Shown one piece after another: positions 464 to 17,311 of a stretch of DNA of 18,559 nucleotides; the first letter of the stretch is position 1, and each line of letters begins with the position of its first letter. This DNA is from Promethearchaeota archaeon (GTDB taxonomy: Archaea; Asgardarchaeota; Lokiarchaeia; Sigyniarchaeales; SOKP01). A model generated the notes under the pieces. The model had not been told where the DNA came from. It was given only the letters and a program-made list of their open reading frames with translations, and did not search any database. The stretch covers positions 1-18,559 of the forward strand of contig JBHLLU010000066.1 of assembly GCA_048938895.1 (NCBI GenBank). Direction: 5' to 3'. Position numbers and translations under genes: made by a program.

Positions 464-1267
464 ATGGATTTGAATTTAAAAAACAAGGTGGCTTTGGTCT
501 TAGCATCAAGTAAAGGCTTAGGTCTTGCATGTGCTAAAGGACTTTATGAAGAAGGAGCAAATGTAATTATTTGTAGCCGCTCTAAAGAAAATTTGACAAA
601 AGCAAAGGAAGAAATTGAATTTTTAGAATCTAAAAATAAGAATGCAAGAATTAAGCCGATCGTTGCGGATTTAATGGATGAGAATCACATAAACATTTTA
701 ATAAATAAAACTCTTGATGAATTTGGAAGAATAGATATCTTAGTCCATAATGCAGGTGGACCTCCATCAGGACCATTAGAAACAATATCTAAAAAAGATT
801 GGGAAAATTCAATCCATTTGAACCTTCTTTCATTCATCAAAGTCACTAATTTAATCATTCCAAGCATGAAAAAGCAAAATTATGGAAGAATTATCGCTAT
901 AACATCAGTTTCAGTAAAACAGCCTCTAGATAATTTAGTTCTTTCAAACACGACCAGATTAGGAGTTGTTGGATTCGCTAAAACAATTTCTAACTTGTAT
1001 GCTAAAGATAATATTTTAGTTAATGTTGTTTGCCCAGGACCAACTCTAACAGATAGAATGAAGAATTTAATAAAGAAAACTGCTCAAGATATAGGAGGAT
1101 CTTTTGAAGATGCGCAAAAAGTTTGGATTGATTCAATACCATTAGGACGTTTAGGAAAACCTGAGGAATTAGCCAATGTAGTTGTTTTTCTTGCTTCTGA
1201 TAAAGCTAGTTATATTACTGGGACGGTGATACAAGTTGATGGGGGATTTATAAAGAGCTCATTTTAA
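464..1267 (+). CDS. Short-chain dehydrogenase/reductase (FabG/BKR-like SDR subgroup)
   Basis: ALVLASSKGLG Rossmann motif, GRIDILVHNAGGP, IPLGRLGKPEE, SYITGTVIQVDGG; the YxxxK position reads SNTTR. Confidence 0.95.
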   Translation: MDLNLKNKVALVLASSKGLGLACAKGLYEEGANVIICSRSKENLTKAKEEIEFLESKNKNARIKPIVADLMDENHINILINKTLDEFGRIDILVHNAGGPPSGPLETISKKDWENSIHLNLLSFIKVTNLIIPSMKKQNYGRIIAITSVSVKQPLDNLVLSNTTRLGVVGFAKTISNLYAKDNILVNVVCPGPTLTDRMKNLIKKTAQDIGGSFEDAQKVWIDSIPLGRLGKPEELANVVVFLASDKASYITGTVIQVDGGFIKSSF

Positions 1268-1475: not shown

Positions 1476-3725
1476 ATGATAAAAAATAAGACGCTCCCTG
1501 GTTGTTTAATATTGTTATGTTTTATTTTGTCTAGCTTTTTAGGATTTTTGTTCTTAAATCAAGAATATAATTATAAAGAATTAAATAATTTAGAACAAAT
1601 TAATACTTCAGCTCAAGAATCCTATTTCAAACAATGGATTGAAAATCCAGATTTTACATCTACGGAGAATTGGACATCAATTAATGGGTTATTGGGAGAT
1701 CCAGATGATCTCAATGCCTATATTGATACTTCTGCTGAAGAAGCTAATTTTGAAGTGATCGGTGAAGTTAGAACAAAAACAATAGATGATCCAATAAATA
1801 TAGCTAATAGTGGTAATTGGGTTAAATTTAATAAAACTGAACCAGCAATTAATCCAGATACTTGTACTATTGATAATAATGGATTTTATGTGAGTCATTC
1901 ATGGCATGATGCCACAGCAGACCAATTTGCTAGTGTGTATTGGAGATTTAATGTTAGTATGGATGTGGACATGTCTGAATATGAAATAACATCTGCATTT
2001 CTTAATGCAATTATGTATGCTAATGTTGATCCTAATATTGATACAAAATACGATACTTATGCTAGATTTAGCCCTGATTATCCTATAAATCAACCTGGAA
2101 TTTTTGACCATGCTTTCTTTATCGTTGAGATTGCAGATTTAGACATGAAAAGTACTTATAGAATAGCATACAATCAAACAAACGACTTAGGAAAAGACAC
2201 AGTCCCAACAATTTATACTGTCGGACCGAAATCAATTGAACCTGAGGGTGATCAATTAGATTTAATTTATTATTTGAATAGAGTCTTTGAAAACGATCCA
2301 GGTCATGATAATTTTACAATAATAGTTGGAATAGAAATAAGTTGTGAAGATGATTATACTTCAACTGATTTTGATGATTGGGATGAATTAAGAATTCAAT
2401 CTCTCAATTTGACTTTTACATATGAAAAGAAAATTGATAAATTGTCTTCCATCTCTTGGAATCAACAAGGAGTTAAACCTAGTGATCTTAGTAATGATAC
2501 AGTTGTTGTTAATAGTGCATTACTTGGATTTAAATATAAGATAAACGAGACTTGGCCATCGATTTCTCCAAATTCTGAAATCAGAATAAATGTCAATGAT
2601 ATTAAACATTCAGAATCAATTAAACTAAGCTCTGCTACATCAAATTTCCAACCAGCAAAAGTAGGGGGATTTGATATTGCTTATTTAATAGATGAAGATA
2701 AAAACATAAATGTTTCAATTGAAGTATATATTGCTGACGACTTTAAATTAAATCGGAGTATCAAAATTTCTATTGATGAGGTTTATCTTAATATCTCTTA
2801 TACAATAATCTTTGATGATTATCAAACTAATTTGCAATTGTTTTTAAATGGCGAAAACAAAACCCTCTCTCCTTCTATAACTCTTCCGATTGATAGAAAT
2901 CTAACAATAACTATTAAATATACAAATCAAACAGGAGGACATATATCAGGAGCTACGCTTCTATTAACGGGAGGAGGAATTTTTAAAAGTTTAGATGAAC
3001 ATACAGATAATTATTCAATCACATTAAATGTAACTGAAGACTTGAGTTATGATATTAATAATTTAAATATTGAAGCTACGAAAACAAATTATGAGACCAG
3101 GATCATTAATCCGACTGTTATAGTGAGAAAAATAAATACAGAATTCTTAACAGTATCTGGAGAAACCACTATTAATATTAATGAGGGGGAAGATGCTCAT
3201 TTCGCTATAATGTTGAATGATACGGATAATAATGAATTAATAAAAGGAGCGATAGTTACCTACACTTGGGATTTAGATCCAATCCAAAAAGTCTTAACTG
3301 AAGATGATGGAGTCTATGAAGGAGTAATAGTAGATCCTCCGCAAAAACTCGGTTATATAATAAGGATTTATGTATTTGCTGGAGGAGATTATGAATTTCA
3401 GGACTACTATGAATTAACTTTAAATGTAGGTACAATTGTGCCTAAAACTCAACCGGACTTAAGCTGGGTAATATATACGTTAATAGGCGCAATAGCAGGT
3501 TTAGTTGTTGTCTTTACTCTTTATCAAACACATTTTAAATATCCTCCAATGATACGAAAAATAAGAAAATTGAGAAAGAAAATAGGAAAAGGCAAGAAAA
3601 CAAAACCCATTATGCTAAGCGAAAGAAATGAAATAGTTCAAAAGAAATTCCAATCTCATAAACATATTATTGGTTTTGAGCAAAAAACACCTGAAAAACC
3701 TACTGAGGAGTATAAAAAAAAGTAA
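1476..3725 (+). CDS. Large membrane-anchored cell-surface glycoprotein with basic cytoplasmic tail
   Basis: N-terminal hydrophobic signal/anchor; acidic beta-rich ectodomain with about 18 N-x-S/T sequons (hand count); C-terminal TM WVIYTLIGAIAGLVVVFTLY followed by HFKYPPMIRKIRKLRKK. Confidence 0.85.
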   Translation: MIKNKTLPGCLILLCFILSSFLGFLFLNQEYNYKELNNLEQINTSAQESYFKQWIENPDFTSTENWTSINGLLGDPDDLNAYIDTSAEEANFEVIGEVRTKTIDDPINIANSGNWVKFNKTEPAINPDTCTIDNNGFYVSHSWHDATADQFASVYWRFNVSMDVDMSEYEITSAFLNAIMYANVDPNIDTKYDTYARFSPDYPINQPGIFDHAFFIVEIADLDMKSTYRIAYNQTNDLGKDTVPTIYTVGPKSIEPEGDQLDLIYYLNRVFENDPGHDNFTIIVGIEISCEDDYTSTDFDDWDELRIQSLNLTFTYEKKIDKLSSISWNQQGVKPSDLSNDTVVVNSALLGFKYKINETWPSISPNSEIRINVNDIKHSESIKLSSATSNFQPAKVGGFDIAYLIDEDKNINVSIEVYIADDFKLNRSIKISIDEVYLNISYTIIFDDYQTNLQLFLNGENKTLSPSITLPIDRNLTITIKYTNQTGGHISGATLLLTGGGIFKSLDEHTDNYSITLNVTEDLSYDINNLNIEATKTNYETRIINPTVIVRKINTEFLTVSGETTININEGEDAHFAIMLNDTDNNELIKGAIVTYTWDLDPIQKVLTEDDGVYEGVIVDPPQKLGYIIRIYVFAGGDYEFQDYYELTLNVGTIVPKTQPDLSWVIYTLIGAIAGLVVVFTLYQTHFKYPPMIRKIRKLRKKIGKGKKTKPIMLSERNEIVQKKFQSHKHIIGFEQKTPEKPTEEYKKK

Positions 3726-3767
3726 TAAATCTAAAGTTAAAATATTGGAAAAAAGAGTTGAAAAAAA

Positions 3768-4895
3768 ATGGCCAAGGGATTTGTAATAACAGAATGGACA
3801 GAAGATCAAGGATTAGTAGTAACTTTTAGTCATCCTGAATCTTTGAATATTGATTTAGATGATATGATGCGTATATTTTATGCTCATATTACTGGCGCTG
3901 GAGAAGCTGGTAATGTTTTAGTAAGATTAGAGAAAGCACGTTCAAATGTCTATAGTTATTTCACAGGAATGGAATCGTCAAAACCACTTATGATAAATTT
4001 AATGTTAGAATTAGGAGAAGATCCAGAAATGTTTGGTGAAACAGTATTACATGAGATTAATCAAACTATTTTGAACTACTTAATTCAAATGGGAACTAAT
4101 GTCTCTCAAAAATATGAAATTACAAAGGAATTAACAAAATATATAAAAAGTACTCTAATTCTCCTAGAACGGTTAAAAAACCTTACAAAAGAACAAAGAT
4201 TAGCACGAATATATGGTAGTGAGAAAGGAAGAACAATTCTTGAGATATTGCAAGATAAAGCATTGTCAAAAAAAGAATTACAAGGAATTTTAGAACAAAA
4301 ATTGAATAAAATTATCTCTAATATTGATATCACACTAGATCCATTTATTAAAACTGGTTTGATAAAACAAGACTGGGTCGGGGAAGAAACAGATGTTACT
4401 CTATTTCTTCTTTCAGATTTTAGTTTATTTCGAACACCAGTTACCAAATTAGTAGAAGATTCTAAAAAAAATCTGCCAACACCAACTCTAGCGACAAAAT
4501 ATTTCGATGAAGTTTCCAAATTTTTTAAGGATTATGGTCCCAATTTGGAAGATGGTTTAATTATTGCTCGAAACATGACGAATCCAGATAAATATGACTA
4601 TATTACTCTATTACGGGAGAGATCATACCCTTTAAATAAGCTTCCAAGAGGCCCGGGAGAAAGTATTGAACAACTTGGGGGATTTTTAAGATCAATGGAG
4701 CAAGATAATATAATAAAGATACTAACGGATGAAAAAGATACTCAATGGGTATTTTTACTTACGGATATCACTACAGATACATTTTATCCTGAATATATGA
4801 TTGAAAAAATCCGTAACCATAGAGTAGAAGGAAATTTAAATAAGGATGTTGCAATTAAACATTTAGAATTTCTTGAGGAAGTATATAAAAAATAA
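3768..4895 (+). CDS. Longin/uDENN-like N-terminal domain plus two winged-helix domains
   Basis: Residues ~1-135 fit the longin pattern beta-beta-alpha-beta-beta-beta-alpha-alpha with the W-x3-G...P opening (GFVITEWTEDQGLVVTFSHP); two wHTH-like units end in TLFLLSD and WVFLLTD. The ORF is clear; the domain call is by eye. Confidence 0.7.
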   Translation: MAKGFVITEWTEDQGLVVTFSHPESLNIDLDDMMRIFYAHITGAGEAGNVLVRLEKARSNVYSYFTGMESSKPLMINLMLELGEDPEMFGETVLHEINQTILNYLIQMGTNVSQKYEITKELTKYIKSTLILLERLKNLTKEQRLARIYGSEKGRTILEILQDKALSKKELQGILEQKLNKIISNIDITLDPFIKTGLIKQDWVGEETDVTLFLLSDFSLFRTPVTKLVEDSKKNLPTPTLATKYFDEVSKFFKDYGPNLEDGLIIARNMTNPDKYDYITLLRERSYPLNKLPRGPGESIEQLGGFLRSMEQDNIIKILTDEKDTQWVFLLTDITTDTFYPEYMIEKIRNHRVEGNLNKDVAIKHLEFLEEVYKK

Positions 4896-4896
4896 T

Positions 4897-4902
4897 AGGT
4901 GA
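4897..4902 (+). promoter_or_regulatory. Shine-Dalgarno site for the TTG start at 4913
   Basis: AGGTGA 10 nt upstream of TTG, right after the stop of the previous gene. Confidence 0.65.
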
Positions 4903-4912
4903 ATACTTCAAA

Positions 4913-6868
4913 TTGTCAAATAAAGAAGATTCAGCAACTATGCAGGTATTGGAACTAATTGGACTTGCTCACGATGAAGTTGAGACCTATTTTAAAATTA
5001 CAGGAAGAGGTCCTGTAATGATAGGAGAAATCGCTCTTTTGGCAGACGTTTCAGAGGAAAGAGCCACAGAAATCGCTAGTAATTTATTTCAAAAAGGACT
5101 TCTTAAACAAATACCCGGTAAAGCACCAATATATGAAGCATTACCACCATATGCCGCTCTTTTAGGCCAAATTCACCAATTTAAAGAAACAATAAAAACT
5201 TTTCAACAAGTCACTCCCCAAAATATACAGGAACGATTTAATTCATTAGAGACTCATTCAGCTAAGCTTAAAAAATTGGATGATTATCGTAATTATCTTC
5301 AAGTCATGAAGACAAAATTACCGGAACAAATAAAGACTCAATTTGATAGGTTTGAAAATGAGATTGAACAGGTAAATAAATTTCGAGATGTCCGACGATT
5401 TATTCTCAACTTGAAAGAGATTGTTCCAGCAGAAATTACAAAGGAATTTGGTGCTATGGAAACTCAACTAGATTCGATGAAAACCGAGATATCTAGTAGA
5501 TTTGAGAAACAATTCAGAATTGGTGCTTTGAAAAGTATGGCTGAAAAAATTGTTTCTCGAGTAATTTCGGAACAATTCAAAGAAATAACCGAGGTTTTTA
5601 GAGAAAAATTTGTGGGTACAACCCAAAATATGCTTGATCAAGTGATAGGACAGTTAGGATCCATTACTGATACAGCTGGTGAGATAAGCAGTGATTTGGG
5701 AACGGTTTTTACAGATATAGAAAGTGGATTGAAAACTACCTTAAGTGATTTAGAAAATAGAGTCTCAGGAGTATATGATGATATCATTTCAGGAATTAAT
5801 GAGTTAAAAGAGTTATTTAGAACTGAAATTTTTGAAACTATCCAAAATGATATAATAAGTAATATCATTAATCAGTTAGATAGTGCGGAGTTAACAATGA
5901 ATGAATTTTGGCAACGTTCAAAAGAAGCTTCATTGTTAAGTTTCAAAGATGTATGGTTTGTCAGAAGTGTTGAAGGTATAAAAGCTCAAATTAATGAATC
6001 ACTCACCCGTGTGAAAATGAGGGTTCATATTGTAGCCCCCAAGTTAGAAGATATAGATTTAGTGGCACTTACAAGACTAAAAAGCCATATAAATATACGA
6101 ATTTCTACAAATTTTGATCTGAATGATCCAGAAGACCAAACCAGATTTCAACAAATATCGGAATATCCAAATTTTACATTAAGGCATTATGGTCGAGAAA
6201 ATTTATGGTCTATAAATAAAGATTTTGAAGAAGTTGTCGTTTGTGTTATTTCACATACAGAAGAAAATGAAGTTCAGATTGCTGGTATGGGTTCTGTGCT
6301 TGAAGAACATGTAAAGCTCTTCGCTGCTGTTTTGGAAGATGTTTGGATTCAAAGTAAAAAGATAGATCAAGTAGAAGTATTACACACAATAAAAAGAGAA
6401 GTTAAACCAAGTTATCCTGAAGAACACCCTAGACCATCTGTAATGACTCCATCTTTAAAACAAGAACCAGAACCAATTACGTCCCCACCTCAAGAAATCC
6501 CACCGATTATTAAACAAGAACCAGTTAAAATTGAACCTACCGTGAAGATCGAAACTCCAATAGAACCTTCTTCAATTACACCTGAACCTGCAATGTCAAC
6601 AGCAGCAATTGGATCAACAGATGCTTATCTTTCGGCTCAAATTGATAAATTGATAAACAATATCCCTAATATGACAGGGCATGATATCGCAACGGAGCTA
6701 CAAAATATTCAAGATGATATTCTTGAAAGAAAAGGGTTTAGTGGAGTACTTAGGCAAATGCAAAAGGGAATAGCTCCCTTAAAATCTAATCCAAATGTAC
6801 TTAATCCCTCTGAAAGACAAGAATTAATAAATAAAATTAATTTTTGGAGAGGGAAATTAAAAATTTAG
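4913..6868 (+). CDS. Extended TrmB-like transcriptional regulator (HTH, helical repeat insert, PLD-like effector domain, Pro-rich linker, C-terminal helical domain)
   Basis: TrmB-type HTH (LIGLAHDEVETYFKITGRGP..EIA..L..KGLL..GKAPIYEALPP); DVWFVRSVEGIKAQI...VHIVAP resembles the start of the TrmB effector domain. Confidence 0.75.
   Translation: MSNKEDSATMQVLELIGLAHDEVETYFKITGRGPVMIGEIALLADVSEERATEIASNLFQKGLLKQIPGKAPIYEALPPYAALLGQIHQFKETIKTFQQVTPQNIQERFNSLETHSAKLKKLDDYRNYLQVMKTKLPEQIKTQFDRFENEIEQVNKFRDVRRFILNLKEIVPAEITKEFGAMETQLDSMKTEISSRFEKQFRIGALKSMAEKIVSRVISEQFKEITEVFREKFVGTTQNMLDQVIGQLGSITDTAGEISSDLGTVFTDIESGLKTTLSDLENRVSGVYDDIISGINELKELFRTEIFETIQNDIISNIINQLDSAELTMNEFWQRSKEASLLSFKDVWFVRSVEGIKAQINESLTRVKMRVHIVAPKLEDIDLVALTRLKSHINIRISTNFDLNDPEDQTRFQQISEYPNFTLRHYGRENLWSINKDFEEVVVCVISHTEENEVQIAGMGSVLEEHVKLFAAVLEDVWIQSKKIDQVEVLHTIKREVKPSYPEEHPRPSVMTPSLKQEPEPITSPPQEIPPIIKQEPVKIEPTVKIETPIEPSSITPEPAMSTAAIGSTDAYLSAQIDKLINNIPNMTGHDIATELQNIQDDILERKGFSGVLRQMQKGIAPLKSNPNVLNPSERQELINKINFWRGKLKI
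5174..5488 (+). repeat. Three tandem 35-aa protein repeats inside the TrmB-like gene
   Basis: Residues 88-192 align without gaps, with P15, I18, F22 and E26 in all three units. Confidence 0.7.
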
Positions 6869-6892
6869 TTTTTTTTCCTATTTTATTTCTTT
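6869..6892 (+). terminator. Oligo-T archaeal terminator of the 1476-6868 cluster
   Basis: T8 run and T-rich tract immediately after TAG, between convergent genes. Confidence 0.5.
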
Positions 6893-7956
6893 CAAAACAA
6901 GAAAGGATTATCTATTTCTAAAAAATTCTTAATTGTAGTTAATATTTCTTCTTTAGAGCCAATATAAGCGAAAAGTTGATGTTGAGCTTTGCCATGAGAA
7001 GCATTATCAATTGTTTTAAAGGAATTTAGTTGTAATTCTATCTCCCCAAAATTCAGTTGTGGTTTATCTGGTGATTCTGAATTATAAGATTGAATCACGC
7101 CTATTTCTGAGTTTGGATGATCTCTGGCAACATCGAAACAATTATCTTGGGTTCTCGGAATTTCATTGGATAATTTTACTATAAATCCATATTCCTCAGA
7201 ATCAGGCATTTTTAATATATAACTTATTTTTGCTAAAATATCGAAATTAATATCTTCTGGACGAATGGCAAGTTTGTAAACATCATTAACATCAATCTTA
7301 AATGCTACATAATTCTTTCCAATCATTAATCGATCTTCAGGAATTGATCTAAAATAAGAAAGAGGTTTAGGATTTTCTTTTGTTGGAATTAAAACCGTAC
7401 CTGGAAATTCTTTACCACCACTAATAACTGTTGCTAAACTCCAACCATTAATTTGTAAATTTGGTCGATAGAAGACGCAATCATCAAGAATTTCAATTCC
7501 ACAATAACTTAATCCCGTAGCAAAAGGTTCTTCTACGAGTCTTATTTGACGTGTTATTTCTCCTTGGTATCCCTGTTTTGTTCTTTGGTTAGTTAGGAAT
7601 ATTCCACTTGACAATGTACAAGATTGTTTTGACTGTGCTAAAATTTCATAATTGGCTGGATCAAGTCCATTCGGACAAAACCACTCTAAAAATGTCTCTG
7701 GATGTTTATAAAAGAAATCTCTTTCAGGGCTAACCCAATACCGATCCCCTCCAATTTCATGACTTCTATTTTGAATGGAATTTTTAATATTAGGATTTAT
7801 CCATAAAAGACTGTAACAATTTGCTTTAGGGAATACGCCCAGAGGTCTTCCTCCATATTCAGAAAGCACAACTGATCCTTCTTGAGATTCTAATTCTACA
7901 ATTGTTGTAATATCTTTAAGAGTGGATACCAGAGTTTCTTTTGTGAAATAATTCAT
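6892..7956 (-). CDS. DUF6786/DUF4380-like protein, probable galactose-mutarotase-like beta-sandwich
   Basis: 354-aa ORF with YGGR..G, LLWIN, IGGDRYWVSPE and GEIELQ motifs; family recalled, not searched. Confidence 0.55.
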   Translation of the reverse strand: MNYFTKETLVSTLKDITTIVELESQEGSVVLSEYGGRPLGVFPKANCYSLLWINPNIKNSIQNRSHEIGGDRYWVSPERDFFYKHPETFLEWFCPNGLDPANYEILAQSKQSCTLSSGIFLTNQRTKQGYQGEITRQIRLVEEPFATGLSYCGIEILDDCVFYRPNLQINGWSLATVISGGKEFPGTVLIPTKENPKPLSYFRSIPEDRLMIGKNYVAFKIDVNDVYKLAIRPEDINFDILAKISYILKMPDSEEYGFIVKLSNEIPRTQDNCFDVARDHPNSEIGVIQSYNSESPDKPQLNFGEIELQLNSFKTIDNASHGKAQHQLFAYIGSKEEILTTIKNFLEIDNPFLF

Positions 7957-13746: not shown

Positions 13747-15372
13747 GTGCAGTCTTACGATTTTGATTCTGAAGCCCAAAAGCATTTTAATAAAGCTTTT
13801 TCGGAAATTAAGCCAACAAATTGGCGACAGTGGTTAGATTTAGCTACTAAAGAGGAATATGAAGACTTAGCTTTAAAAAATTCTGGATTGGATTCAGTAG
13901 ATAATATATTTGAACAAATAGTAAAGATAAAGTCAAGTTCTAAAGATCTCTCTATAGATCTTAAAAGATTCATATCTGAGAATCAAAAATCTACCCCTTT
14001 AATCATATGTCATAGTTCAGGTACAACGAACAGCAATCTCAATGCTCTTAAATGGTTTTTTATGTCAAAAGAAGTCGTACAGAGACAATGGGCTCCTGGG
14101 ATGCAAGCAATATTTGAATCAAGCGGTTTAGACTCGAAATCTTCTGCTGTTATCTTTGTACCTTCAAGAATGAAATTTGACGGTATTCAATTTATCGATG
14201 AAATTAAATACATCTCTTTATACTCCTCTGAATTTTCACAAAGAGTTATGCTTTCGATATTAAATCCAAAAACCTACCTCTTTAATGAGTACAAGAACTC
14301 AAAAAGCTTAGAAATTATCTCCCAAATCTTATCTTTAGAAGATATATCAGTAGTATCTGCTCCTGCAGCAACAATACTAAGTTGGGCAGATCTCGAGAAA
14401 TTAAAGGAAGGAATAAGAAGATATTTAAAGCAAGACAACCATAAACCAGATAATTTAAAGAAAATTTTTGAAAGGGAAAATCTTACTTCAGCATGTAAAA
14501 TTATCCAACAGAAGCTTTCAGAAAAGCTTTCAAAAACCACATTAATATTTAGTATTAGCTCACTCTCAGAATCGGATTGGTACTTGATAAGAAAGTTCAT
14601 GAAATGGGAAAAGGGTCAGGAAAAATTTACAAATTTATATGTTATTTCTGAGATTGGTCCATTTGCTGCAAGTATTACTAAAGCAGATTTCACTGTATCA
14701 CGTGCAAATAGAATGTATGTGTTTCCATTGACATTGCCTGTTATAGAACATGATAATAAAAAGGAACTAATCACTAGAACAAAGAAGAGTGTTGGTAGAC
14801 TTCTAGTTTCTAGACTACACAACTCGAAAGCTATGATCAATATGGATCTCGGTGATGTAATTTCTTTAGTAGATCAAGAAAAATTACCCCTCATTGAAGG
14901 AAATATTCGAAGATCATGTTTTAAGCTAAAATATCCATTAAAAATTGCTGAGAATATTCCTATTCCAACGAATTATTCAATTTTTGCAGGTGATTATTTT
15001 CCTCTTAAAGATTTTAGAATTATTGATCCTCGGAAAACTATTAATTGTGTGAGTAAACAATTTGATTTAAAGAACGATTCGATATTGCTAATTTATAGAA
15101 ATACTAATAAATGGATTTTATACATTGCTCTAGCAAATATTAACAGAAATGCTATTCAAGATGAAATTATTAATGACATATTAAAATGTTCTGAGGAAGT
15201 CGGTTTCAAAGAAGTAATCGAGAATGGATATTTAGAAATTGAAATAATTGATGAAGCTCCAGTTGATTTTTTTGCCTCTAGGTCTGAAATTTTATCAAAA
15301 GTGAGAAATGGAAAACTGCCAAAAGGAATTCTGAAGAGATGGCCTTTATATTTGTTAAGAACAGAGATTTAA
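13747..15372 (-). other. No minus-strand gene here; the short antisense ORFs are shadows of the plus-strand CDS
   Basis: The 72, 108 and 74 aa antisense ORFs lie wholly inside a motif-bearing CDS. Confidence 0.3.
13747..15372 (+). CDS. Divergent adenylate-forming (ANL superfamily) enzyme, PaaK/LuxE/GH3-like; GTG start
   Basis: P-loop HSSGTT..K, LYVISEIG (YxxSE), and GRLLVSRL...MINMDLGDVI matching the PaaK G(E)LxxT.L...RYxxGD region. Confidence 0.7.
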   Translation: MQSYDFDSEAQKHFNKAFSEIKPTNWRQWLDLATKEEYEDLALKNSGLDSVDNIFEQIVKIKSSSKDLSIDLKRFISENQKSTPLIICHSSGTTNSNLNALKWFFMSKEVVQRQWAPGMQAIFESSGLDSKSSAVIFVPSRMKFDGIQFIDEIKYISLYSSEFSQRVMLSILNPKTYLFNEYKNSKSLEIISQILSLEDISVVSAPAATILSWADLEKLKEGIRRYLKQDNHKPDNLKKIFERENLTSACKIIQQKLSEKLSKTTLIFSISSLSESDWYLIRKFMKWEKGQEKFTNLYVISEIGPFAASITKADFTVSRANRMYVFPLTLPVIEHDNKKELITRTKKSVGRLLVSRLHNSKAMINMDLGDVISLVDQEKLPLIEGNIRRSCFKLKYPLKIAENIPIPTNYSIFAGDYFPLKDFRIIDPRKTINCVSKQFDLKNDSILLIYRNTNKWILYIALANINRNAIQDEIINDILKCSEEVGFKEVIENGYLEIEIIDEAPVDFFASRSEILSKVRNGKLPKGILKRWPLYLLRTEI

Positions 15373-15591: not shown

Positions 15592-16209
15592 ATGAACAAT
15601 CCACATGATATATGTATATGGAAAGAAACTGCAGAATGTGAGGATTGCTCTGTCAAATGTAAGTTAATTTGCCATTTTCAAAGTAAATATTTATTAAGTT
15701 TCCTGGGATTTTTTATTGTTTTTGTTATTACAATGTTTTTTGGTGTTATATTATCTGGTTATGGATGGTTTTTATTAGGCTGGGTCGGTTTTTGGTTGTT
15801 TTTCTTTGAATTTTGGGAGATTAGAATTTTATGTAGTCATTGTCCTTTCTATGCTGAAGAGGGAAAAACGATTCATTGTATAGCAAATTATGGCAGTATG
15901 AAATTATGGAAGTATCATCCCGAACCGATAAAATTGTCTGAAAAAGTCCAATTGATAATTGGATTTATTATTCTCATGGGGTATCCGCTTGTTTTTTTAA
16001 TTTTAGGTAAGCAAATCATTCTTTTAATAATTGGACTTCTACAAATAATTGCCTTCTTTACTTTTTTAGAAGTAAAAAGATGTGGTGTATGCCTTAATTT
16101 TTCCTGCCCTTTAAATCATGTAAAAAAAGAAGTGGTTGATGAATTTCTTAAAAAGAATCCGGTGATGAGAAAGGCATGGGAAGAAGCAGGATACGAGATT
16201 ACAAATTAG
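15592..16209 (+). CDS. Cys-rich four-TM membrane protein, probable metal or Fe-S binding
   Basis: 11 Cys in three clusters (N-terminal, CSHCPFY..HC, CGVCLNFSCPLN) around two hydrophobic hairpins. Confidence 0.8.
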   Translation: MNNPHDICIWKETAECEDCSVKCKLICHFQSKYLLSFLGFFIVFVITMFFGVILSGYGWFLLGWVGFWLFFFEFWEIRILCSHCPFYAEEGKTIHCIANYGSMKLWKYHPEPIKLSEKVQLIIGFIILMGYPLVFLILGKQIILLIIGLLQIIAFFTFLEVKRCGVCLNFSCPLNHVKKEVVDEFLKKNPVMRKAWEEAGYEITN

Positions 16210-16963: not shown

Positions 16964-17311
16964 ATGAAAGGGAAATATTGTAAAGTTATAAAAGAATATA
17001 AAACACCATTTCCTGATCCACTGAAGATAGAAAAGGATGAATATGTCCAGATTGAAGAGAGAGAAAGCGAGTGGCCTGGGTGGATTTGGTGTATTACTAA
17101 GATTGGGAAGGAAGGATGGGTTCCAAAGAGTTATCTTGAAATCCAAGAGATTAATGCTAAATTGCTTCAGAATTATGACGCGACCGAATTATCAGTTATG
17201 GTAGGGGAAGAGTTTATGATTGAAGATGAGGAAAGCGGTTGGTTTTGGGTAACTAACGAGCAAGGAAAAAAAGGTTGGATTCCAATTGAGAATGTAAAGA
17301 TTATAAAATAA
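16964..17311 (+). CDS. Tandem SH3-domain protein
   Basis: Two units with the SH3 signature: EY..P..DPL....GWIWC...GKEGWVPKSYL and NYDATELSV..GE....SGWFW...GKKGWIPIENV. Confidence 0.88.
   Translation: MKGKYCKVIKEYKTPFPDPLKIEKDEYVQIEERESEWPGWIWCITKIGKEGWVPKSYLEIQEINAKLLQNYDATELSVMVGEEFMIEDEESGWFWVTNEQGKKGWIPIENVKIIK

Follow-up and report, generated by a model that had tools for sequence, protein, structure and literature searches.

The DNA analysed here (the window) is an 18,559-nt contig, JBHLLU010000066.1, of a Promethearchaeota archaeon whose 4.65-Mb metagenome-assembled genome is 98.7% complete with 7.5% contamination; in our labels it is contig C132, C standing for contigs of this host genome (G000), G for genomes, f for families and L for contigs elsewhere. 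It carries three consecutive genes on the forward strand (genes 1, 2 and 3; Table 1), which encode a surface protein, a cytoplasmic protein with a longin domain and two winged helices, and a TrmBL2-like protein. The genes are separated by gaps of 42 nt and 17 nt (4896-4912), neither internal spacer contains a run of four or more T, and a Shine-Dalgarno (SD)-like word precedes gene 3. Oligo-T tracts terminate archaeal transcription, and one such tract directly follows gene 3. An earlier reading of the window made from the letters alone (the sequence-only reading) had described this layout of co-oriented genes, short gaps, SD site and oligo-T tract, and it was right at each point.

Table 1 Features of the three-gene locus and its flanks, with positions in the window
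Feature	Position	Strand	Details
SDR gene, upstream flank	464-1267	+	Place kept in 33 of 52 related loci
Gene 1	1476-3725	+	749-aa type-I surface protein; acidic ectodomain, one transmembrane (TM) helix, basic tail
Gene 1, TM helix, residues 664-682	3465-3521	+	Hydropathy 2.3 over 19 residues
Gene 1, cytoplasmic tail, residues 683-749	3522-3722	+	67 aa, net charge +15
Gene 1, juxtamembrane motif KYPPMIRKI, residues 688-696	3537-3563	+	Inside the predicted interface with gene 2
Gene 1-gene 2 spacer	3726-3767	+	42 nt, no T-run
Gene 2	3768-4895	+	375 aa; cytoplasmic longin and two winged helices
Gene 2, longin domain, residues 1-139	3768-4184	+	From model
Gene 2, winged helix 1, residues 141-224	4188-4439	+	From model
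Gene 2, winged helix 2 and two C-terminal helices, residues 260-375	4545-4892	+	Predicted tail-binding groove
SD-like AGGTGA	4897-4902	+	10 nt before the gene-3 TTG start
Gene 3	4913-6868	+	651 aa, TTG start, TrmBL2-like
Gene 3, TrmB-type winged helix-turn-helix (wHTH), residues 8-80	4934-5152	+	
Gene 3, long antiparallel helical hairpin, residues 81-338	5153-5926	+	Two very long helices
Gene 3, PLD-like alpha/beta domain, residues 342-480	5936-6352	+	
Gene 3, proline-rich disordered linker, residues 481-567	6353-6613	+	pLDDT <50; length varies among orthologues
Gene 3, C-terminal 4-helix module, residues 568-651	6614-6865	+	pLDDT 81-90; no named family
T8 tract	6869-6876	+	Archaeal-terminator-like; directly after the gene-3 TAG stop
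DUF6786 gene, downstream flank	6892-7956	-	Place kept in 21 of 52 related loci

The same arrangement was found in a sample of 52 related loci from public genomes, which hold 52 copies of gene 2. Gene 3 is the next gene downstream of 44 of the 49 copies with room for a neighbour, confirming the gene 2-gene 3 adjacency that had been proposed for comparison across genomes, and a gene-1-type tail lies next upstream of 44 of 47; with adjacency kept to this extent, the arrangement of the trio is not due to chance. In 17 of 38 related loci, gene 1 runs directly up to or into the start of gene 2 (gap of 0 or less), gaps between genes 2 and 3 mostly measure about 17-23 nt, and 29 of 34 of the latter spacers contain an SD-like word. 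Loci that break the adjacency of genes 2 and 3 are mostly second copies of the gene 1-gene 2 pair.

Gene 1 has two hydrophobic segments (residues 9-27 and 664-682) and an ectodomain with a pI of 4.2 and 18 N-x-S/T sequons. It has no match in Pfam or NCBIfam; in an Atlas model, residues 35-449 find structure neighbours from Promethearchaeota only, and the part beyond residue 449 gives Ig-like leads. Across the related loci, the protein encoded upstream of gene 2 varies from 509 to 1683 aa while its tail is nearly constant, with P8, R12, R15 and R35 invariant in an alignment of 28 gene-1-type tails. Paralogues of gene 1 lie on contigs C53 and C114. One of them (G000:C53:87635-91087, minus strand, 1150 aa) apparently consists of two gene-1-type units head to tail; it has four hydrophobic segments, and the tail motif occurs twice, at positions 501 and 1053 of the open reading frame (ORF).

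Sequence searches say little about gene 2: nothing rose above noise in Pfam, NCBIfam or PADLOC, its profile reached only E >= 0.049 against PDB sequences, and no match was found in the phage collection. Its architecture emerges from an AlphaFold2 model (mean pLDDT 88.8, pTM 0.78) that was built on 23 sequences. The longin domain is a five-stranded sheet sandwiched by helices in the order bb-a-bbb-a, the topology of the longin superfamily, and of the two winged helices that follow, the second proper covers residues 260-342. W10 and G15 are nearly invariant in the family. Between strands 1 and 2 most members read WD[DE][RK]xG, and the orthologue group of the window reads WTEDQG, with T in place of D11; a Pro follows G15 in few members only (the C88 paralogue and a longin of G012). 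Longin GAP subunits of the FLCN, NPRL2 and SMCR8 type have a conserved arginine finger in this domain; in gene 2, no invariant or nearly invariant Arg occurs in longin residues 1-139 of 23 sequences, as judged from sequence rather than structural superposition.

The gene-2 family is large. A word-indexed search returned 399 homologues at E <= 1e-3, the best 120 of which are 68-100% identical and 360-378 aa long, and the representative library contains 508 clusters at 50% identity. Matches occur in 216 of the 301 genomes of a phylum-wide sample, including every sampled genome of f1, f2, f5, f9, f10, f14, f15, f21 and f23, and are nearly absent from f7, f16, f18, f24 and f29. Identity among orthologues is 54-88% for gene 2 and 50-85% for gene 3. 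Single gene-2 matches (E 3.2e-175 to 5.3e-120) in G280, G205 and G295, which belong to families otherwise devoid of gene 2, a gene-3 match in G280 (E 6.0e-268), and a 40%-identical gene-2 fragment on a contig labelled Candidatus Deferrimicrobium (L073) are probably mis-binned contigs. Two library proteins, P0298 and P0327, carry a gene-2 domain fused N-terminally to a SIR2-like domain and TPR repeats; SIR2_2 is above the cut-off in P0298 (E 1.2e-11) and below it in P0327 (22.0 bits against 24.5), and P0298 has weak PADLOC SIR2 matches. The three window proteins themselves match none of the PADLOC defence models, the SIR2-TPR combination being confined to the distant fused relative P0298. Further relatives of 550-700 aa (P0297, P0285, P0288, P0302, P0277 and P0318) have K/E/P-rich low-complexity linkers and helical ends; no Pfam family was found in P0297 or P0285.

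Genes 1 and 2 are tied together in several settings. The gene-2 domain occurs at eight places in the host genome, among them the C-termini of giant surface proteins (2670 aa, 2644 aa and at least 1267 aa, the last cut by the contig end), where it lies ~100 residues past the TM helix and after the same tail motif. Eight further proteins of the representative library (588-2548 aa) also end in it. On C33, each of two surface-protein genes (products of 1293 and 1495 aa) abuts, stop to start, its own gene-2-like gene downstream, and on C53 three gene-1 paralogues are divergent from a paralogous gene 2′-gene 3′ pair. A check of gene-2 neighbours in five distant genomes found a gene-2-like gene adjoining a type-I protein (862-2199 aa) in three (G001/f5, G012/f15 and G075/f9), in either gene order, and the tail motif is present in surface-protein tails of f5, f15 and f9 as well. 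Within the host genome, a regular expression for the motif ([KRQ][YIF]P..[IV][KR][KQR][IVAM]) matched 12 times in 6672 ORFs, compared with 0-2 times in five shuffled controls, and 10 of the 12 matches lie in nine proteins, every one of which is fused to a gene-2-family domain or encoded beside one. The other two, in a multi-pass PHP protein on C28 and in a protein without a TM helix on C75, were judged to be chance matches.

Modelling of gene 2 in complex with the tail gave an ipSAE of 0.76 (0.76, 0.75 and 0.79 in individual runs) against 0.00 for the best of three controls, with at least 95% of contacts shared between runs and a partner pLDDT of at least 69. Of 157 solved complexes, 116 reach this mark, as do 2 of 215 mismatched pairs; the alignments being self-made, these counts hold only roughly for our complex model. 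In the predicted complex, gene 2 contacts tail residues 8-50 through winged helix 2, the wing of winged helix 1 and the C-terminal helices, and the 36 gene-2 residues involved are enriched in conserved positions, with 11 of them in the 50 conserved family columns (Fisher p = 0.0036). This prediction, of the kind that the sequence-only reading had proposed for the tail and the longin protein, supports docking of gene 2 on the gene-1 tail. Because of the fusions, the pairing in distant families, the near-exclusive tail motif and the control-passing complex model, the gene 1-gene 2 link is the best supported of the trio, at least as strong as that between genes 2 and 3, which reverses the ranking in that reading, where the latter had been placed ahead.

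Gene 3, with 289 homologues at E <= 1e-3, starts with a TTG codon on the same alignment column as the M start of its orthologues. Its model (mean pLDDT 68.1) follows the domain order of TrmB and TrmBL2: the Pfam TrmB family PF01978 matches residues 14-79 above its cut-off (28.1 bits against 25.6), a PLD-like effector core comes after a dimerising helix as in the TrmB family, and the closest fold is the chromatin protein TrmBL2 (E 4.1e-7). The modelled boundaries are residues 8-76 for the wHTH, 79-338 for the two long helices, 347-480 for the alpha/beta domain and 569-648 for the end module. The NCBIfam TrmB equivalog NF040851 scores 20.3 bits, with a cut-off of 600; Pfam finds no sugar-binding-domain family, and no H-x-K motif was seen in the PLD-like part. 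The hairpin resembles an Smc arm, and profile matches to the helical region are apolipoprotein-like. Within the wHTH, R32, K61 and the lysines of the wing are conserved. A profile of the end module picks out five proteins in the host genome, one of them a 999-aa gene-3 relative (G000:C85:19346-22345, minus strand) with a TrmB-like start and five copies of the module (domain E 0.039 to 3.6e-11); a GTPase-like gene lies 2.4 kb from it. The three products accordingly agree in outline with those named from the sequence alone, namely a TM-anchored ectodomain protein with a basic tail of ~60 aa (67 aa and +15 here, after a TM helix at residues 664-682), a longin-like protein with tandem winged helices, and a TrmB regulator extended by further domains, here a hairpin, a PLD-like part, a linker and an end module.

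The link between genes 2 and 3 is also supported. In a diverged paralogous pair, gene 2′ (417 aa) has gene 3′ (730-747 aa) directly downstream, both on C53 and in each of the four further genomes that were fetched. A single ORF of ~461 aa combines a gene-2-type longin with a TrmB HTH and a PLD-like domain in all three cases checked (G001 and G013 of f5, G053 of f23), and in G297 a longin-longin gene is divergent from a gene-3-like gene. As evidence for this link, the duplicated pair, these fusions and the G297 pairing outweigh adjacency alone. At E <= 1e-30, gene 3 is found in 83 of the 301 sampled genomes, which belong to the class of the window and to f5 and f23, with single matches elsewhere. 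Among 12 long gene-2 relatives examined out of 150 listed, none is a direct gene 2-gene 3 fusion; their extensions consist of SIR2 and TPR or of K/E/P-rich linkers plus helices, and the end-module profile matches none of the 12.

Small GTPases accompany other branches of the system. All four gene-2 loci of the host genome that lack gene 3 (C33, C88, C106 and C113) have a small GTPase gene within 1.2 kb, and no GTPase gene comes within that distance at either locus with gene 3. The host genome contains ~100 Ras/Arf-type matches in 4.65 Mb, and at this density of roughly one per 46 kb, rough arithmetic makes such proximity at four of four loci unlikely to arise by chance. In G038 and G011 as well, a GTPase gene directly adjoins a gene-2-like gene. 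In two other families, gene-3-like genes have Rag-like GTPase genes for neighbours: a Gtr1/RagA-like gene directly upstream in G240 and one within 1.6 kb in G297. Since GTPase genes stand beside both gene-2 paralogues and gene-3 relatives, the wider system is probably wired to GTPases: a description of it as kinase-free may hold, and one as GTPase-free is doubtful. Pfam detects no GTPase gene in the window itself. The G038 and G011 genes that adjoin gene-2-like genes (L079:7563-8411, minus strand, and L083:6028-6897, plus strand) encode proteins of 282 and 289 aa in which an N-terminal domain of ~125 aa precedes an Arf/Roc-type GTPase domain. On C53, a 187-aa protein made of a coiled coil and the gene-3 end module (G000:C53:56823-57386, minus strand; E 7.9e-8) is flanked by a Ras-type GTPase gene and by a 296-aa gene with an Arf/Ras-type GTPase domain (Pfam).

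A sequence detail of the longin domain bears on the same connection. In the portion of PMC12290439 available to us, longin subunits of GTPase-activating proteins are described as having a GP motif at the start of strand 2, and human C9orf72 as having a WD motif and carrying W33-D34...G38-P39 (PMC12290439). The spacing of W10 and G15 in the gene-2 family is the same as in this human sequence. That the WTEDQG of the window fits a GTPase-facing loop altered in the gene-3-coupled branch is only a lead.

The reading that we find most plausible, although we hold it tentatively and stop short of calling it probable, is that the locus encodes a membrane-anchored chain running from a surface protein through a tail-clamping adaptor to a TrmBL2-like protein, which would be held or released according to the state of the ectodomain. 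In this Loki-type Asgard archaeon, one operon-like cassette would assemble the whole complex. Gene 1 would be a surface glycoprotein whose ectodomain evolves fast and whose basic juxtamembrane helix (KYPPMIRKIRK...R) hardly varies, and this helix would be clamped in a groove formed by winged helix 2 and the C-terminal helices of gene 2, leaving the longin domain free as a docking platform. The partner of the platform here would be gene 3, with its HTH, coiled-coil hairpin, inactive PLD-like domain and end module on a flexible linker. Ligand binding, cell contact or clustering could then set the ectodomain state and thereby decide whether gene 3 is kept at the membrane or is free for DNA, a kinase-free form of signalling by sequestration; in paralogous cassettes, small GTPases would take the place of gene 3 as partners of the adaptor. 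The chain draws on gene order, conservation, fusions and folds, all of them observed, and on a tail-adaptor interface that is predicted. We infer the adaptor-gene 3 contact, the signal-dependent release and the binding of DNA.

Several results weigh against such a chain. Synteny extends to unrelated neighbours (the SDR gene at 33 of the 52 loci, DUF6786 at 21 and glyoxalase at 20), which makes adjacency alone weak evidence: the whole block is syntenic, beyond the three genes. Gene 3 is present at only two of the eight gene-2-family loci of the host genome, and at E <= 1e-30 it is found in none of 76 in f9 and none of 19 in f14, both of which have gene 2. By this distribution, the surface protein and adaptor are the older unit and gene 3 is a later addition. 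The fused forms retain the tail motif, so it may serve another role, for example lying on the membrane. The complex model was built on self-made alignments. The gene-3 wHTH has a net charge of -4, and its recognition helix, SEERATEIASNLFQKG, is acidic where TrmB has basic residues; because of this acidity and the wide margin by which the TrmB equivalog is missed, gene 3 counts only as a putative DNA-binding protein. The sequence-only reading had proposed a pathway of receptor or anchor, adaptor and transcription factor, and had described TrmB proteins as nutrient-responsive regulators or chromatin proteins. Its physical chain is plausible, but 'transcription factor' and 'nutrient-responsive' are putative labels, given an acidic HTH, a best match to chromatin TrmBL2 and an equivalog score of 20.3 against 600.

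The same data can be arranged differently. It is possible, though we consider it somewhat unlikely, that the module is centred on a GTPase: gene 2 would be a longin platform of the folliculin/NPRL/C9orf72 type, tethered to the membrane, and would regulate or dock a small GTPase encoded elsewhere. Gene 3 would not pair with gene 2 directly but would serve that GTPase as effector or co-regulator, perhaps by way of its end module. The C9orf72-like spacing of W10 and G15 argues for this, as do the GTPase genes within 1.2 kb of all four gene-2 loci without gene 3, those abutting gene-2-like genes in G038 and G011, the Gtr1/RagA-like gene upstream of a gene-3-like gene in G240 and the similar one near its counterpart in G297, and the 187-aa end-module protein between two GTPase genes. 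The window, however, has no GTPase gene, longin residues 1-139 contain no invariant or nearly invariant Arg, and the orthologues of the window read WTEDQG where most paralogues read WD[DE][RK]xG. Gene 3 could also be a TrmB-type regulator of the usual local kind that controls the surface-protein genes next to it, co-inherited with them and not in contact with gene 2. Regulators often sit beside their targets, flanking genes here show conserved synteny too, and both the PF01978 match above cut-off and the TrmB/TrmBL2-like domain order would suit such a role. Yet longin-TrmB-PLD fusions exist in two other families, the gene 2-gene 3 pair was duplicated as a unit, most loci have a short spacer with an SD-like word, the HTH is acidic, and the extra 250-aa hairpin and end module would be unusual in a simple repressor; we regard a purely local regulator as improbable.

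About as improbable, in our estimate, is a structural tether, in which genes 2 and 3 would anchor the surface glycoprotein to an internal scaffold or the nucleoid with no signalling, gene 3 being an architectural protein of chromatin type or one that lines the membrane. Such a role would suit the best fold match to chromatin protein TrmBL2 (E 4.1e-7), the Smc-arm-like hairpin, the apolipoprotein-like profile matches of the helical region and the strong conservation of orthologues (54-88% for gene 2, 50-85% for gene 3), and cultured Loki cells are described, in the part of PMC9834061 available to us, as having complex surface proteins and no ordered S-layer. A final alternative takes the AP sigma and mu longin subunits, which read cargo tails, as its model: gene 2 would read the tail motif as a sorting signal for the delivery, clustering or shedding of surface proteins. 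In the predicted contact, however, the longin domain takes no part, the tail being held by the winged helix and the C-terminal helices; the many proteins in which adaptor and cargo are covalently fused suit a permanent complex better than transient sorting; and Pfam finds no coat genes nearby in the window. We consider a cargo adaptor highly implausible.

Among known systems, the GTPase-regulating longin pairs folliculin-FNIP (Lst7-Lst4), GATOR1 (NPRL2-NPRL3) and C9orf72-SMCR8 come closest to gene 2. Foldseek matched full-length gene 2 to a 368-aa GATOR1 chain (E 6e-4), and rigid alignment by VIA restricted this GATOR1-type match to gene-2 residues 1-138; because the full-length alignment has a TM-score of only 0.25, any likeness past the longin domain is tentative. 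The tandem winged helices of ESCRT-II were not among the best 50 of either VIA list, in which residues 141-256 are barely covered. Compared with these regulators, the gene-2 longin has no conserved Arg and has a Pro after G15 in a minority of sequences, and the remainder of the protein consists of two winged helices predicted to hold a receptor tail. The Lokiarchaeota Roadblock-Longin protein (PDB 8yqg) is 11% identical to gene 2 and has its longin joined to a roadblock domain, not to winged helices. 'NPRL2-like longin domain' families have been described across Asgard archaea (asCOGs; Liu et al., bioRxiv 10.1101/2020.10.19.343400) and are enriched in Loki genomes (bioRxiv 10.1101/2020.10.19.343400; PMC9834061). 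In the parts of these sources available to us, the fusions described are to two-component domains and not a surface-protein pairing, a tail motif or a TrmB partner. Relative to TrmB and TrmBL2 (PDB 3qph, 2f5t and 5bpd), gene 3 has a hairpin of ~250 aa inserted between the HTH and the PLD-like domain, and it further carries a disordered linker of 87 aa and a new end module of 84 aa; its HTH is acidic, no sugar-binding family matches, and the NCBIfam equivalog is far below cut-off.

Two unrelated systems offer analogies. In Escherichia coli, the transcription factor Mlc is sequestered at the membrane by the glucose transporter PtsG. The proposed mechanism would resemble this in holding or releasing a regulator at the membrane without a kinase, although the proteins are unrelated, an adaptor is interposed in the Asgard cassette, and regulation and DNA binding there are only proposed. 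Talin and kindlin are tail adaptors of integrins, the animal adhesion receptors; like gene 1 in its putative pairing with gene 2, an integrin is a single-pass surface protein with a short conserved tail motif that is read by a cytoplasmic adaptor, and neither gene 1 nor gene 2 is homologous to these proteins. In the literature searched, with bioRxiv supplements and figures outside its scope, we found no description of the surface-protein/longin-winged-helix pairing, the tail motif or the TrmB link. The parts themselves are known folds; new here are the motif in the tail, the groove predicted to hold it, the duplication of the adaptor-TrmBL2 pair and the alternation between GTPases and a TrmBL2-like protein.

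To our knowledge, the many eukaryote-type longin, roadblock and small-GTPase proteins encoded by Asgard archaea include almost none with a known partner or input. The cassette provides a defined set, made up of clients marked by a tail motif of nine residues, an adaptor whose groove for that motif is predicted, and two alternative outputs, a TrmBL2-like protein or GTPases, and with it a cytoplasmic handle on the "complex surface proteins" of cultured Loki cells. Such a conserved set may form a link from the cell surface to the cell interior in those archaea that are most closely related to eukaryotes, and, if the proposed chain is true, the coupling of longin platforms to surface receptors predates the origin of eukaryotes. 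A broader extrapolation, which we regard as unlikely though worth stating, is that the cassette belongs to a family of Asgard outside-in devices, in which dozens of variable receptors would share one tail motif and a longin/winged-helix adaptor related to folliculin, NPRL and C9orf72, with GTPases or a TrmBL2-like protein as output; this family would be a prokaryotic forerunner of longin-based surface or nutrient signalling, wired directly to DNA.

Elsewhere in the window, two ORFs on the plus strand, of 541 aa (13747-15372) and 205 aa (15592-16209), match no Pfam or NCBIfam family above noise and recur in none of the 52 related loci. Further downstream, a 115-aa protein (16964-17311, plus strand) consists of two SH3 domains (Pfam SH3_2, E 4.2e-18, in two stretches), a eukaryote-type adaptor domain in an archaeon.

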